Origin: Crocosphaera subtropica ATCC 51142
GTDB taxonomy: Bacteria; Cyanobacteriota; Cyanobacteriia; Cyanobacteriales; Microcystaceae
DNA: 32,000 nt
Assembly: GCF_000017845.1 (NCBI RefSeq)
Contig: NC_010546.1
Span: 4,350,001 to 4,382,000 of the forward strand
Direction: 5' to 3'
Positions 8,126 through 32,000 of the stretch are shown in pieces. Within the stretch, counting starts at the first letter, position 1; each line of letters starts with the position of its first letter. The translations under genes were made by a program, and so were the position numbers. Below the pieces are notes generated by a model. The model made no database searches, had not been told where the DNA came from, and was given only the letters and a program-made list of their open reading frames with translations.

Positions 8126-8428
8126 ATGTCTTTATCCATTGAATGTAAAAAACGTCCCGAAAATGTTAAAGGTAATGCTTTACGTCGTGAAGGCTTAATT
8201 CCTGCTACCTTATACGGCCATAATGGCACAGAATCGATGCAATTAATGGTGGATCAAAAAGAAACTGCCTTAATGCTTAGGGAGGTAACGGTTGATGAAA
8301 CGGTAATCGATGTTAATATTCCGGATTTATCTTGGAATGGTAAAGCGGTTGTCAAGGAAATACAGGCACATCCTTGGAAACGCAACCTTATTCATCTTAG
8401 CTTCTGTTACGTTAAACCTGAAGCTTAA
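8126..8428 (+). CDS. rplY: 50S ribosomal protein bL25 (short form)
   Basis: 100 aa. KGNALRREGLIPATLYG and KEIQAHPWKRNLIHLSF match the L25 / 5S rRNA-binding domain. Confidence 0.85.
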   Translation: MSLSIECKKRPENVKGNALRREGLIPATLYGHNGTESMQLMVDQKETALMLREVTVDETVIDVNIPDLSWNGKAVVKEIQAHPWKRNLIHLSFCYVKPEA

Positions 8429-27862: not shown

Positions 27863-28540
27863 ATGAAACCTTATTCTATTGATTTACGTCAGAAAATTAT
27901 TGAAGCTTATCAAAACCAAGAAGGTTCACAAAGACAGTTAGCTAAACGCTTTAAAGTTAGTCTTAGCTTCACTCAAAAATTATTGAAGCGATATCGCGAA
28001 ACCAACGAGATAGAACCTCGTAAGAGTGGAAAAGGATTTATTGCCAGACTAGAACAGCATACACAGGTGGTTGAGAAATTAGTTGCTGATAATAATGATA
28101 TCACTTTAGAAGAATTACAAAACTCTCTTGAATTAGAAACAGGGGTCAAACTATCTATTAGTAACATTTGTCGTTTTCTACAAAGAAAAAAACTGACTCG
28201 AAAAAAAGCGAGTCAAGCTGCAACTGAAAGAGTCCAAGGTCTTCGATTTAACTATTGGAAACAAGTCAAAAAAGTTGACATGGAAAATTTAGTATTTATT
28301 GATGAAATGGGAGCCAATCTAGCTTTAGCTCGTAGATATGCTCGTTCTCTTCAAGGGACTCGTGCCTATAGTCAACAGCCTTTTTACCCTGGACAACATT
28401 TAAGTTTAATTGGAGCGATTGCTCTTAAAGGTTTTATAGGAGGAATGACTCTAGAAGGAGGAACAAATGGTATAGCTTTTCAAGTTTTTTTAGATAAAGT
28501 TTTACTACCCCAACTTTGGCCAGGTGCTTGTGTAGTAATG
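27863..28540 (+). pseudogene. IS630-family transposase (second subfamily) interrupted and 3'-truncated
   Basis: MKPYSIDLRQKIIEAY...VFIDEMGANLA...PGACVVM is then broken by the IS982 insertion, exactly at the conserved VVMDN block. Only ~30 nt of possible continuation follow the insertion. Confidence 0.75.
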
Positions 28541-28825
28541 ACCTGAGTTCGATATAAGATAATCGGCTATAATTTAGTCACTGAAAGGATTACAGGCATT
28601 TTCGATTATTTACCAGTTCTCAATTACTGTTGATTAATGATAATGAAATGAATTAGAAACAGAATCAAGGTAAGATATTGATTCTGTGACAGAAACAAGC
28701 CAAGACTTATCCCAAGCCTTCGATTTAGCCAAACAAATTTTAAGACATAAAAAATCAGTCAGAATATCTCTAGCTAAATTTCTTTCTAAATTATATAATC
28801 TTCCTGTAAAACCAGAAGATTTACA

Positions 28826-29788
28826 ATGATAGAAATAGAAACCTTATTTTATCAAATTGATGATTTTTGTCAAGCCTTTTCTCCAATTTTTGAGTCTCAT
28901 CTTCTTCCCCATAAAGTTGTAAAAAGAAAAAGAAAATATAAATTATCTTTAAGTGAAGTAGCTACAATAGTCGTTTATTTCCATTGTTCAGGCTATCGAA
29001 ATTTTAAAGATTACTACGTTAAGTATGTCTTAAAACATTTTCAATTAGAATTTCCAAAATTAGTTAGTTATAATAGATTTGTTGAATTAATTCCATCAGT
29101 TTTAATGCCTCTTATACTGTATCTTAACACAAGAAAAGGAGAAGTAACAGGAATTAGTTTTATTGATTCTACAAGATTACCTATTTGTTCCAATAACCGA
29201 GCCACTCGGAACAAAGTTTTTGAAGGGTTAGCTAACTGGGGAAAAAGCTCAACTGGTTGGTTTTTCGGCTTTAAGTTGCATTTAATTATTAATGATAAAG
29301 CGGATGCGACCCAACCGCCGTTGTACGGCGATTGGAACGCGCACCAAGAAGGCGAACTTTTATCTTTCCAAGTAACTCCAGGTAATGTGGATGATAGAGT
29401 TCCAGTTAAAGATTTAGTTGAGGAACTTTTTGGAAAACTATATGGTGATAAAGGTTACATTTCTTCTCCTTTATTTCAGAAGCTTTTTGAGAAAGGAATC
29501 AAATTTATTACTCCTTTTAGGAAGAAAATGAAAAACCGTTTATTACCCATGATTGATAAAATCATGTTGAGGAAACGTTCTTTAATTGAAACCGTTAATG
29601 ACCAACTTAAAAATATTTCCCAAATTTCTCATTCAAGACATAGAAGTGTTTTGAACTTTATGGTTAATATCATCGCTGGTTTAATTGCTTATACACATCA
29701 AGAGAAAAAGCCATCTCTTAATCTTGATCATGAGGAATATACTTACCTTCCCAGCATGTTAACTCCTTCTGAAAGTCTCTTATTTTGA
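28826..29788 (+). CDS. IS982-family DDE transposase carrying a 17-aa in-frame insertion
   Basis: ETLFYQIDDFCQAF, FIDSTRLPICSN, GKSSTGWFFGFKLHLIIN, PGNVDDR, GDKGYIS, SLIETVNDQLKN and HSRHRS. A 47-codon upstream ORF (GTG 28686) overlaps the ATG by ATGA. Confidence 0.85.
   Translation: MIEIETLFYQIDDFCQAFSPIFESHLLPHKVVKRKRKYKLSLSEVATIVVYFHCSGYRNFKDYYVKYVLKHFQLEFPKLVSYNRFVELIPSVLMPLILYLNTRKGEVTGISFIDSTRLPICSNNRATRNKVFEGLANWGKSSTGWFFGFKLHLIINDKADATQPPLYGDWNAHQEGELLSFQVTPGNVDDRVPVKDLVEELFGKLYGDKGYISSPLFQKLFEKGIKFITPFRKKMKNRLLPMIDKIMLRKRSLIETVNDQLKNISQISHSRHRSVLNFMVNIIAGLIAYTHQEKKPSLNLDHEEYTYLPSMLTPSESLLF
29300..29350. other. GC-rich hairpin micro-insertion H3 (51 nt, in frame) in the IS982 transposase gene
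   Basis: gcggatgcgacCCAACCGCCGTtgtACGGCGATTGGaacgcgcaccaagaa encodes ADATQPPLYGDWNAHQE between IINDK and GELLSF. It is about 60 percent GC by hand count, within a ~30 percent GC gene. Confidence 0.7.
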
Positions 29789-29961
29789 AATAGTCACTTA
29801 ATCAAGTGGATTGATTTTAGCCAGTATTTGAAAATGCTAACTGGCTTGAATTATCGTGTTTATTTTTCTTAAGATGCTATTTCTTTTTTTGGAGATTTGC
29901 GGTTCTTCCTTACATCGAACTCAGGTTAATAATCTCACTTGGAAATACAACCTATGATTTC

Positions 29962-29996
29962 AAAAAAAAAACGGCAGAAGGGCGAAACTTCTACCG
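29962..29996 (-). terminator. Intrinsic terminator of clpC
   Basis: On the minus strand: CGGTAGAAG tttcgcc CTTCTGCCG followed by T10. Confidence 0.8.
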
Positions 29997-30021
29997 TTGC
30001 TTGAGGGTTAAATCTTAATAG

Positions 30022-32000
30022 TTACGAGTCAGTCGCTTTCGCTAAAACGGGTTGGGTATCACCAGAAACCACTTTAACTTTGCCGTCTTCGCCGATATCA
30101 ACGACAGCGACATCGCCTTCGCCAACTCGTCCGGAGAGAATTTCCTCTGCAAGAACATCCTCTAGAAGACGCATAATAGCACGACGTAAGGGTCTTGCAC
30201 CATAAGCAGGGTTATACCCTTCTTCTACCAAGCGTTCCTTGAATTTATCAGTAACTTGCAAGGTAATCTCTTTCTCAGTTAACCGTGCAAATACTTCTTT
30301 GAGGAGAATCTCGGAAATTTGCTTGACCTCTTCCTTATTCAACTGACGGAAGACGATAATTTCATCGAGTCGGTTGAGGAACTCAGGTCGGAAGTATTGC
30401 TTCAATTCTTCATTAACCAGGTTACGAATACGGTTGTACTGTGCCTCATTTTGGTCATCTTCAAACTCAAATCCAAGACCACCGCCACCTTTCTCAATGA
30501 CCTTAGAACCAATGTTAGAGGTCATAATCAATAAGGTATTCTTAAAGTCCACAGTACGCCCTTTAGCGTCCGTTAAACGACCGTCTTCTAAGATTTGCAG
30601 AAGCATATTGAAGACATCAGGGTGTGCTTTTTCAATTTCATCGAATAGCACAACAGTATAGGGACGACGGCGAACCGCCTCGGTCAGTTGTCCTCCTTCG
30701 TTATAGCCCACATATCCTGGAGGAGAACCAATTAACTTAGACACCGTATGGCGTTCCATGTATTCGGACATATCCAGACGAATCATGGCTTCTTCTGACC
30801 CAAAGAAATAGGTCGCCAATGCTTTGGTTAACTCAGTTTTACCAACACCAGTCGGTCCAGAGAAGACGAAACTAGCAATAGGACGGTTGGGGTTCTTTAA
30901 GCCAACCCTTGCCCGACGAATCGCTCTCGAAACCGCTTTAACCGCATCTTCTTGACCGATTAAACGTTGATGTAGGGTGTCTTCCATGTGTAGAAGTTTC
31001 TCGGATTCTGTTTCCGTCAACTTGTTCACAGGAACCCCAGTCCAAGAAGCCACAATGTGGGCGATTTCTTCGGAATCTACAAAAGGCTCGTCATTTTCTC
31101 CTTCTCCTTTTTTAGCAGAGGAAATAGAACGAATTTGCTCCTTAATATCCATTTCTTGATCTCGCAATTCTCCAGCGCGATCAAAGTCTTGGGAGCGAAC
31201 TGCGTCATCTTTTTGCTTCAAGATGGTGCGTAGTTCTTTGTCTAATTCCTTGGCGGCAGGAGGCAGTTGAGAATTGATTAAGCGTACCCGTGATCCTGCT
31301 TCGTCAATAAGATCGATCGCCTTATCAGGGAGATAACGGTCAGAAATGTAACGATCTGACAGTTTGGCCGCTGCTTCTAGAGCCTCATCTAAGATTTTCA
31401 GCTTATGATGCTGCTCGTAGCGTTCTCTGAGTCCGTAGAGAATTTCGATGGTTTCTTCTACAGAAGGTTCACCCACCATCACGGGTTGGAAACGACGTTC
31501 TAAGGCTGCATCCCGTTCGATGTGTTTACGGTATTCATCTAGGGTTGTCGCCCCAATACATTGTAATTCGCCCCGTGCTAAGGCTGGTTTGAGAATATTG
31601 GCAGCGTCGATCGCTCCTTCGGCTGCACCGGCACCGATGAGGGTATGAACTTCGTCAATAACCAGGATGACGTTTCCTGCTTGACGAATTTCGTCCATAA
31701 TCTTCTTGAGTCGTTCTTCAAATTCTCCACGGTACTTGGTTCCTGCCACCAATAGACCGATATCGAGGGTAACGACTCGTTTTTCTTCGAGGATATCAGG
31801 AATATCCTTGTTAGCGATGCGTTGGGCTAACCCTTCTGCGATCGCTGTTTTACCAACACCGGGTTCTCCGATGAGAACGGGGTTGTTTTTGGTACGACGA
31901 CCGAGAATTTGGATCACCCGTTCAATTTCTTTTTGTCGTCCCACAACGGGATCAAGTTGTCCATCTGCGGCCAACTGGGTTAAATTGGAACCGAATTCGT
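30022..32000 (-). CDS. clpC: ATP-dependent Clp protease ATP-binding subunit ClpC (C-terminal ~660 codons; N-terminus beyond window end)
   Basis: The frame stays open to the window edge (..[35 protein letters not shown]). Both AAA+ modules are present (GEPGVGKTA and GPTGVGKTE), as is the UVR-like linker. The track Met at 31974 is an internal TTG/Leu. Confidence 0.95.

Follow-up and report, generated by a model that had tools for sequence, protein, structure and literature searches.

A 51-nt compound hairpin in an IS982 transposase gene of Crocosphaera subtropica represents a non-autonomous mobile element that occurs in many cyanobacteria

The hairpin and its host gene

Our analysis of a 32,000-nt stretch of the genome of Crocosphaera subtropica ATCC 51142 (contig NC_010546.1, positions 4,350,001 to 4,382,000; hereafter the window, with positions counted from its first letter) revealed a GC-rich block inside a transposase gene that is one copy of a non-autonomous mobile element of approximately 51 nt, consisting essentially of one compound GC-rich hairpin. 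The host gene (28826-29788, plus strand) encodes a DDE transposase of the IS982 family of insertion sequences (IS), which is 320 amino acids (aa) long with the insert and otherwise intact (Pfam DDE_Tnp_1_3, E = 6.8e-69). The block lies at 29300-29350 on the plus strand, reads GCGGATGCGACCCAACCGCCGTTGTACGGCGATTGGAACGCGCACCAAGAA and is composed of GCGGATGCGACC, a 25-nt variable core, ACGCGCACC and AAGAA. Within the host open reading frame (ORF) it is translated as ADATQPPLYGDWNAHQE, i.e. 17 residues between INDK and GELLSF. Its GC content is 63-64% (0.64 in a 50-nt interval at 29300), compared to 0.18-0.44 elsewhere in the gene and 0.37 across the window.

Folding of both strands reproduced the 11-bp hairpin of a preliminary description made from the sequence of the window. 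Specifically, the inner hairpin (29311-29335, plus strand) pairs 29311-29321 (CCAACCGCCGT) with 29325-29335 (ACGGCGATTGG) around the loop TGT (29322-29324), and the single C.A mismatch of the plus strand becomes G.U on the minus strand. The outer pairs that were said to lengthen the stem were also found: the 5′ arm GGaTGCG (29302-29308, plus strand), which is invariant in the pattern-selected set of copies described below, pairs with the 3′ arm CGCACC (29340-29345, plus strand), as seen in the fold and in the family alignment. Folding energy is -23.8 kcal/mol on the plus strand (z = -2.4; 3 of 200 dinucleotide shuffles equal or better) and -30.8 kcal/mol on the minus strand (z = -4.9; 0 of 200). 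A covariance model of the family, R1, scores 29300-29350 at 67 bits (E = 6.6e-23), its single match in the window. The earlier account of a GC-rich palindrome inserted in frame into an otherwise intact IS982 transposase gene of about 30% GC thus proved accurate, since relatives do not have the segment and the ORF is open.

A precise and recent insertion

The block is a precise insertion into the IS982 transposase gene of C. subtropica, with neither a target-site duplication nor a deletion. None of 112 aligned IS982 relatives has residues in the 17 insert columns (0/16 in a smaller earlier alignment), and the 17 aa are therefore an insertion, as had been proposed, and not a segment with homologs in other IS982 transposases. 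Three insert-free proteins of 303 aa (P0002-P0004) are 92-93% identical to the window transposase outside the insert, and a fourth one of the same length (P0122, from locus L004 in another sample) differs from it by 3 residues and is without the block. Over 1184 nt, the empty IS copy at L004 is 99% identical to the window copy and is set off from it by 11 mismatches and a single gap of exactly 51 nt. The empty site in L004 and L005 reads GATAAAGGCGAAC (GATAAA|GGCGAAC), while the filled site in the window reads GATAAA[GCGG...CCAAGAA]GGCGAAC, with a boundary that can be slid by three bases (AAG). The target ATAAA directly 5′ of the insert (29295-29299, plus strand) is already present in both empty copies. 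Judging from these comparisons, the insertion is recent.

The filled allele was found with the same neighbours at the same locus in three separate Logan assemblies (SRR26036487-89). The block is therefore not an assembly artefact, and its presence is confirmed in independent data. The search for IS982 copies without the block and for further copies of the 51-mer was likewise successful outside the window, with the empty copy at L004 and an identical 51-mer at locus L127. The latter was the one other place found in a metagenome scan for the inner hairpin of the window (Crocosphaera contig JAAUYD010276339.1, 36% GC). There, the 51-mer follows GGCAAAAA within a TnpB ORF and is read in another frame, as GKK[RMRPNRRCTAIGTRTKK]LNKW. 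The adjacent TnpB gene, P0123, has the same neighbouring ORFs on a 76-kb contig of the metagenome-assembled genome GCA_029979785.1. As far as the sequences can tell, this exact variant of the element moved recently.

A single copy in the 32-kb window might also be expected from a one-off event, i.e. filler DNA taken up when a break was repaired, an artefact of the assembly, or an ancestral segment lost in relatives. This explanation retains practically no probability: it is refuted by more than 100 family members elsewhere, by the identical 51-mer at the unrelated site in L127, by the recurrence of the block in three independent assemblies, and by the absence of the segment from all 112 relatives.

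A family of hairpin elements in cyanobacteria

A blastn search of plasmids with the 51-mer gave one suggestive match, which lies within another transposase gene (DDE_Tnp_4) on Stanieria cyanosphaera pSTA7437.02. With the window copy it shares the 12-nt left flank, the right flank, the length of 51 nt and the reading frame (ADATDMSFHGISHAHQA). The central 24 nt, in contrast, are wholly different, yet an 11-bp hairpin is retained. A scan of one genome per prokaryotic species with the pattern GCGGATGCGACC-N(20-28)-ACGCGCACC gave at least 120 matches. Among the matches listed were at least about 100 cyanobacterial copies, from Okeania, Dapis, Crocosphaera, Cyanothece BG0011, Xenococcus, Waterburya, Pleurocapsa, Hyella, Hydrococcus, Prochloraceae, Halomicronema and Phormidesmis, and all cyanobacterial matches listed had an A-run 5′ and AAG(C/A)A 3′. 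GC-rich matches from other organisms look like chance hits, because they are without these flanks. Carriage by phages was considered and rejected, as the two matches on viral contigs are chance matches in DNA of 55% GC, with no A-run or AAG flanks and no evident hairpin.

In 684 kb of collected loci the covariance model gave 112 matches, and among its matches is a second subfamily of 50 nt that begins with GCGGTGCGACC. A search against Rfam 15 returned no family at the gathering score, with only sub-threshold matches in the window region and none in 10 element-bearing loci. For the study of covariation, 52 of the 61 distinct 51-nt sequences that we collected were aligned. In this alignment, ten of the 11 stem pairs of the inner helix are changed on both sides, and compensatory (doubly changed) cells number 149, compared to 62.5 +/- 5.7 in shuffles (0 of 500 shuffles reach 149). 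The element thus has a conserved base, GCGGATGCGACC ... ACGCGCACCAAGCA, and an 11-bp apical stem that is free in sequence provided it pairs. In the diverged copies L037 and L046/L106, paired by hand, both arms of the outer stem are changed as well and pairing is kept. Three pairs of copies (L036/L066, L023/L120 and L063/L088) have inner hairpins that are exact reverse complements of each other between identical flanks, which we read as flipping of the loop, the apical palindrome having been inverted in the DNA. G.T and A.C mismatches across the family (8 vs 3) are too few to decide which strand folds, and inner hairpins occur in both orientations.

The family is widespread and, as far as can be told, undescribed. 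Its flank sequences had no match in the literature searched and the reviews contained no such element; Elhai et al. 2008 lay outside this comparison.

Several insertions may be found in one gene. In Crocosphaera chwakensis CCY0110, the IS982 homologue (L105) is empty at the site of the window and carries two other copies, one in sense orientation 25 nt upstream of that site and one in antisense orientation near the N-terminus, and TnpB genes often have two or three hairpin insertions at different positions. In C. subtropica itself, the TnpB protein P0128 has a 17-residue insert, RVRNLPSHGKCKTHSRQ, at KSKK|GIWYV that is absent from close relatives and is probably a diverged element in the genome of the window. 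A related hairpin, cCGACC-CTCTCGGATTT-AAA-ATCCGAGAG-GAAAGCG..., occurs at 10527-10580 of L127 and in P0135, at the site CPLD|LQKTV near the C-terminus of Crocosphaera TnpB; P0135 is lengthened by 18 residues as a result, and L127 receives a premature stop. These sequences point to a wider superfamily of CGACC-type hairpin inserts. The hairpin at the 3′ end of tnpB in L127, with a similar motif upstream, was considered as an end of an IS605 element and rejected, because comparison with P0124 and P0135 identified it as the 18-residue insertion of the related element. As a separate observation, in several TnpB genes of Okeania (L028, L029, L100 and L115, after ...SGMLKN) the frame is replaced at GMLKN|HKLAS by a recurring sequence, NPPL*LPSREG..., which may be another small insertion.

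Target site and terminal sequences

Five pairs of filled and empty sites (L018/L050, L009/L042, L050/L103, L105/window and window/L004) showed neither duplication nor deletion. The inserted unit is GCGG...CACCAAGNN, placed directly 3′ of an A-run that is already in the empty site; in L050/L103 the insertion lies inside a longer A-run. Among 55 distinct contexts, A occupies each of the positions -5 to -1 in 43-52 and a purine follows at +1 in 53, which gives AAAAA and then a purine as consensus target of the family.

These data bear on the possibility of a classical MITE (miniature inverted-repeat transposable element) that is moved by a DDE transposase via the short terminal inverted repeats of the outer stem. 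The ends are indeed inverted repeats, GG(A)TGCG and CGCACC, and DDE transposases are common among the hosts. However, a target-site duplication is absent from every filled/empty pair, and the 5 nt after CACC are AAGCA in 35 of the 55 distinct contexts and in none of them repeat the upstream AAAAA. Furthermore, the collected loci yielded no longer parent element that ends in these termini, and 51 nt is far under the usual size of MITEs. Because there is no duplication, above all, we regard a DDE-type MITE as highly improbable.

Length and reading frame

The element is 51 nt long in 47 of the 55 distinct contexts and 50, 52 or 53 nt long in the remainder. The ORF of the window stays open because the modal length of the family is a multiple of three and the block has no stop in the host frame. 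A block length divisible by three and the lack of a stop were already given as the reason in the preliminary description. This holds for the window copy, but it is no rule for the family, since frames are broken by the variants with 50, 52 or 53 nt, among them a 53-nt variant in Okeania and a C. chwakensis copy of 52 nt. Many members of the family are read in open frames, with all three sense phases represented, and a stop in a given frame occurs in 11-21% of the elements, compared to 22-26% of shuffles. The 53-nt variant (inner part CCGCGACGACGWCAGCTCGCTTGCGG) follows CACAAAAAA in many TnpB genes of Okeania (L018, L024, L027, L037, L038, L056, L060, L061, L064, L073, L081, L090, L097 and L100) and shifts the downstream frame to -1. 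This variant stands behind an A_AAA_AAG-like heptamer, so that frameshifting or slippage is conceivable, and many of its copies have further stops.

One might therefore ask whether A-run and hairpin form a selected module, serving -1 frameshifting or transcriptional slippage, or acting as an antisense terminator that tunes the genes of mobile elements. Many copies do follow A_AAA_AAG-like heptamers, the Okeania variant does shift the TnpB frame, and there is a weak likeness in Rfam to a Neisseria frameshift element, which is not significant (15 bits, E = 1.2; the gathering score is 50). The window copy, however, follows GATAAA, which is no slippery heptamer, and needs no frameshift, many hosts of the 53-nt variant are pseudogene-like, with further stops and other insertions, and copies are also found between genes and with internal stops. 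In addition, the preference of the copies for the sense strand, described below, is fully explained by the excess of A-runs on coding strands. A selected module is thus very unlikely in our view, and a programmed -1 frameshift cassette in particular was rejected, given the window copy without a slippery heptamer and the many degraded 53-nt hosts.

Host genes

About three quarters of the cyanobacterial copies lie within ORFs of at least 100 aa, as single units. Of the distinct host ORFs of at least 150 aa, 33 of 55 match OrfB_IS605/TnpB, and the others with a Pfam match are mostly members of several DDE transposase families or an RRXRR+HNH (IscB-like) protein. Some copies are intergenic or have internal stops. 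In L127, one copy of 50 nt between genes (8370-8419, minus strand) is located some 130 nt downstream of a photosystem reaction-centre gene (Photo_RC), whose transcript would read the hairpin and then UAUUUGUUUUU, similar to a terminator.

The element is in sense orientation in 51 of 56 host ORFs. This bias arises because the coding strands of the hosts hold 613 A5 runs compared to 103 T5 runs (binomial p = 0.34), and selection at the RNA level was ruled out as its cause, as these runs predict the 51 of 56. A-runs are also denser in mobile-element genes, with 15.8 vs 10.7 per kb, i.e. 1.5-fold higher.

Predicted effect on the transposase

The transposase with its insert was modelled with AlphaFold2 on an alignment of 113 sequences; an earlier model from a shallow alignment, with a mean predicted local distance difference test score (pLDDT) of 42, was discarded. 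The model has a mean pLDDT of 79 and a predicted template modelling score (pTM) of 0.81, and its fold matches DDE transposases and retroviral integrases. Residues 159-173 of the insert have pLDDT values below 50 and lie between two confident strands (145-156 and 178-185). The insert is thereby predicted to sit where a beta-hairpin of the RNase-H-like core turns, and this hairpin runs on into the conserved NVDDR block, which we take to hold the second catalytic aspartate. The preliminary description proposed that the insert may modulate or inactivate transposition. According to this model, the 17 residues would form a floppy surface loop and the fold of the catalytic core would be undisturbed. 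For annotation, the loop is to be regarded as foreign and not as a lineage-specific feature of the protein.

Genomic neighbourhood

The host IS982 is bounded by a left inverted repeat at 28536-28558 and a right inverted repeat at 29909-29931 (both plus strand; pair I1, 23 nt, 87% complementary). It has truncated a transposase gene of the IS630 family (27863-28546, plus strand; Pfam DDE_3 and HTH_Tnp_IS630), whose ORF ends at the left repeat of IS982. With the hairpin in IS982 and IS982 in IS630, mobile elements are here nested three deep. A search of plasmids for close copies of this IS982 found none. A 47-aa ORF (28686-28829) overlaps the start codon of the transposase by 4 nt (ATGA). This leader ORF is conserved upstream of the related IS982 copies L004 and L105 and has a longer form of 137 aa in L005; L005 and L105 have about 270 extra nt in the leader before the transposase. 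On the other side, a strong hairpin followed by T8 (29970-29998, minus strand) lies just downstream of a ClpC-like gene (30022-31974, minus strand) and resembles an ordinary terminator. Within its 32 kb of 37% GC, the window contains 14 octamers of the highly iterated palindrome HIP1 (GCGATCGC), in keeping with an origin from a cyanobacterium.

Mechanism of mobility and spread

Since the element encodes nothing, it must be moved in trans. The mechanism that we prefer, at somewhat less than an even chance, is a trans-acting, hairpin-specific enzyme that acts on single-stranded DNA. Such an enzyme would recognise the folded hairpin with its conserved base and attach it 3′ of an A-run in the single strand, similar to HUH/Y1 transposases with the ends of IS200/IS605. 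HUH/Y1 transposases act in this manner on IS200/IS605 ends, and the same was proposed for repetitive extragenic palindromes (REPs) (PMC6006769, PMC3733652). The absence of a duplication, the fixed 5′ target, an apex kept by structure and a base kept by sequence all speak in favour of this mechanism.

Spread by way of an RNA template would share some of these features. In this case a short RNA ending in a U-tract would anneal to a nicked A-run and be copied by a reverse transcriptase (target-primed reverse transcription). Every copy, when read on the opposite strand, has the shape of an intrinsic terminator, with a GC hairpin and a U-run behind it, and in 52 of 55 contexts the boundary of the element is the base of the hairpin beside the A/T-run. 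The A-run pre-exists in empty sites, insertion inside a longer A-run is possible (L050/L103), no target is duplicated, and the intergenic copy 130 nt downstream of a photosystem gene reads hairpin plus TATTTGTTTTT. However, copies shortened at the 3′ end, the analogue of 5′ truncation in long interspersed nuclear elements (LINE), are rare, with L123 (without the last 5 nt) as the only case. The far end (AAGCA) is sharp, although transcripts would begin at varied promoters, no reverse transcriptase is linked to the element, and the T-tail of the window copy is weak and was not flagged by a terminator scan. We regard RNA templating as a serious rival, though an unlikely one.

A number of points weigh against the hairpin-specific enzyme and the scenario of spread built on it. 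A phmmer search with E. coli RayT against ORFs of at least 70 aa in the loci L001-L126 and the window found no protein similar to REP-associated tyrosine transposases (RAYT), and the five IS200-type TnpA matches in the loci are parts of host IS605 elements. The element is a single hairpin and not a pair of separate left-end and right-end hairpins as in IS200/IS605, and it has no T-run that could pair with the A5 target as a guide of the IS608 type. An origin from the end hairpins of IS200/IS605 was rejected, as model matches are absent at the ends of 12 complete tnpB elements. The invariance of flanks and outer stem (GCGGATGCGACC ... ACGCGCACCAAGCA) is partly circular, because the search pattern imposed the flanks, and of the element's own genome the model scan covered the 32-kb window. 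Finally, the bias towards mobile-element genes is not fully explained: target density was rejected as its cause, since a 1.5-fold difference is insufficient, and that elements in IS genes would be copied whenever the host transposes, and would be carried between genomes, is a matter of hitch-hiking and survivorship that we infer.

On balance, we consider it likely that the block is a copy of a mobile hairpin inserted precisely 3′ of an A-run, which may be moved in trans by a hairpin-specific enzyme acting on single-stranded DNA and would then hitch-hike in insertion sequences. Insertions in essential genes would be lost and those in insertion sequences would be tolerated. Hitch-hiking would account for the identical flanks across cyanobacterial orders, and we propose that most surviving copies lie in TnpB and transposase genes because they hitch-hike with multiplying insertion sequences. 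It is possible, if rather doubtful, that the family represents a new class of single-hairpin elements of approximately 51 nt that are hyperparasites of TnpB, IscB-like and transposase genes across marine cyanobacteria, use an insertion mechanism undescribed for bacteria and perhaps damp or tune their hosts. Candidates for such a mechanism would be target-primed reverse transcription of an RNA shaped like a terminator, or a hitherto unrecognised recombinase specific for hairpins.

If the family is what it appears to be, it is among the smallest mobile DNA elements known, and by living almost exclusively in TnpB, IscB-like and transposase genes it exemplifies parasitism of one mobile element on another. 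With its clean anatomy, i.e. an invariant base, a paired but free apex, a fixed A-run as target and no duplication, the family should allow its mobilising enzyme to be identified from co-occurrence and tested with oligonucleotides. For the mining of TnpB and IscB nucleases in cyanobacteria it is relevant that many genes contain hairpin-encoded loops of 16-18 residues or frame breaks.

Comparison with known systems

The preliminary description likened the block to Rickettsia palindromic elements (RPEs). RPEs are small, GC-biased palindromic mobile repeats that are often found in frame within genes, where they add a peptide loop (PMC10969869, PMC3733652). The likeness applies to behaviour, i.e. 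a dispersed repeat inserted in frame into ORFs that stay open, but does not extend to membership, since the hairpin element has 51 nt, belongs to another phylum and is unrelated in sequence. RPE-1 is about 100-150 bp long, and RPE-4 and RPE-6 are CGTC-tagged REPs, while the hairpin element has no CGTC tag at its ends. Furthermore, RPEs in Rickettsia reside in housekeeping genes, whereas the cyanobacterial element has a fixed A-run target and is found almost only in mobile-element genes.

With REPs and REPINs the family shares short, GC-rich, imperfect palindromes in many dispersed non-coding copies, and the mobility of REPs is attributed to a HUH/Y1 enzyme that recognises hairpins and acts in trans (RAYT, TnpA-REP). 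Cyanobacterial REPs of subclass 2.4 occur inside tnpA-REP genes (PMC6006769), and REPs of the types GTAG-15/16 are present in Cyanothece 51142 (PMC3733652). REPs, however, carry an unpaired GTAG (GT[AG]G) or CGTC tag at one end of the stem-loop that the consensus of the hairpin element does not contain on either strand. They are mostly extragenic and often arranged as inverted pairs, in contrast to the mostly intragenic single units described here, and the RAYT gene is flanked by repeats (REPtron), while none was found beside copies of the hairpin element in L001-L126 and the window. Strict insertion 3′ of an A-run is a further difference.

Elements of the IS200/IS605 family and palindrome-associated transposable elements (PATEs) are likewise hairpin-based and strand-specific, with a fixed 5′ target of 4-5 nt and no duplication, and the hairpin family co-resides with many IS200/IS605 elements. 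These systems differ in having two distinct end hairpins, where the hairpin element has one compound hairpin and no guide complementary to its target, and the end hairpins of the 12 complete tnpB elements are unlike it. MITEs have short inverted ends in common with the family, which differs from them by showing no target-site duplication in any filled/empty pair.

Among small cyanobacterial repeats, Elhai et al. 2008 reportedly described very small mobile repeats, the small dispersed repeats (SDRs), of 21-27 nt, some of which are predicted to form hairpins. SDRs are repeats of Nostocaceae, and SDR5 may use HIP1 as insertion site (PMC5861425). The hairpin family, with 50-53 nt and a distribution in Chroococcales, Pleurocapsales and Oscillatoriales, differs in length and host range from SDR1-8 as they are described. 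SPRITE of Streptococcus pneumoniae is similar in being a dispersed repeat that reads as hairpin and U-run on one strand. SPRITE is much longer and intergenic. In the hairpin element, by contrast, the T-run belongs to the target, and most copies are intragenic and antisense to the orientation of a terminator. The hairpin element is a small palindromic mobile repeat of an apparently new sequence family that is a member of neither the RPEs nor the REPs.

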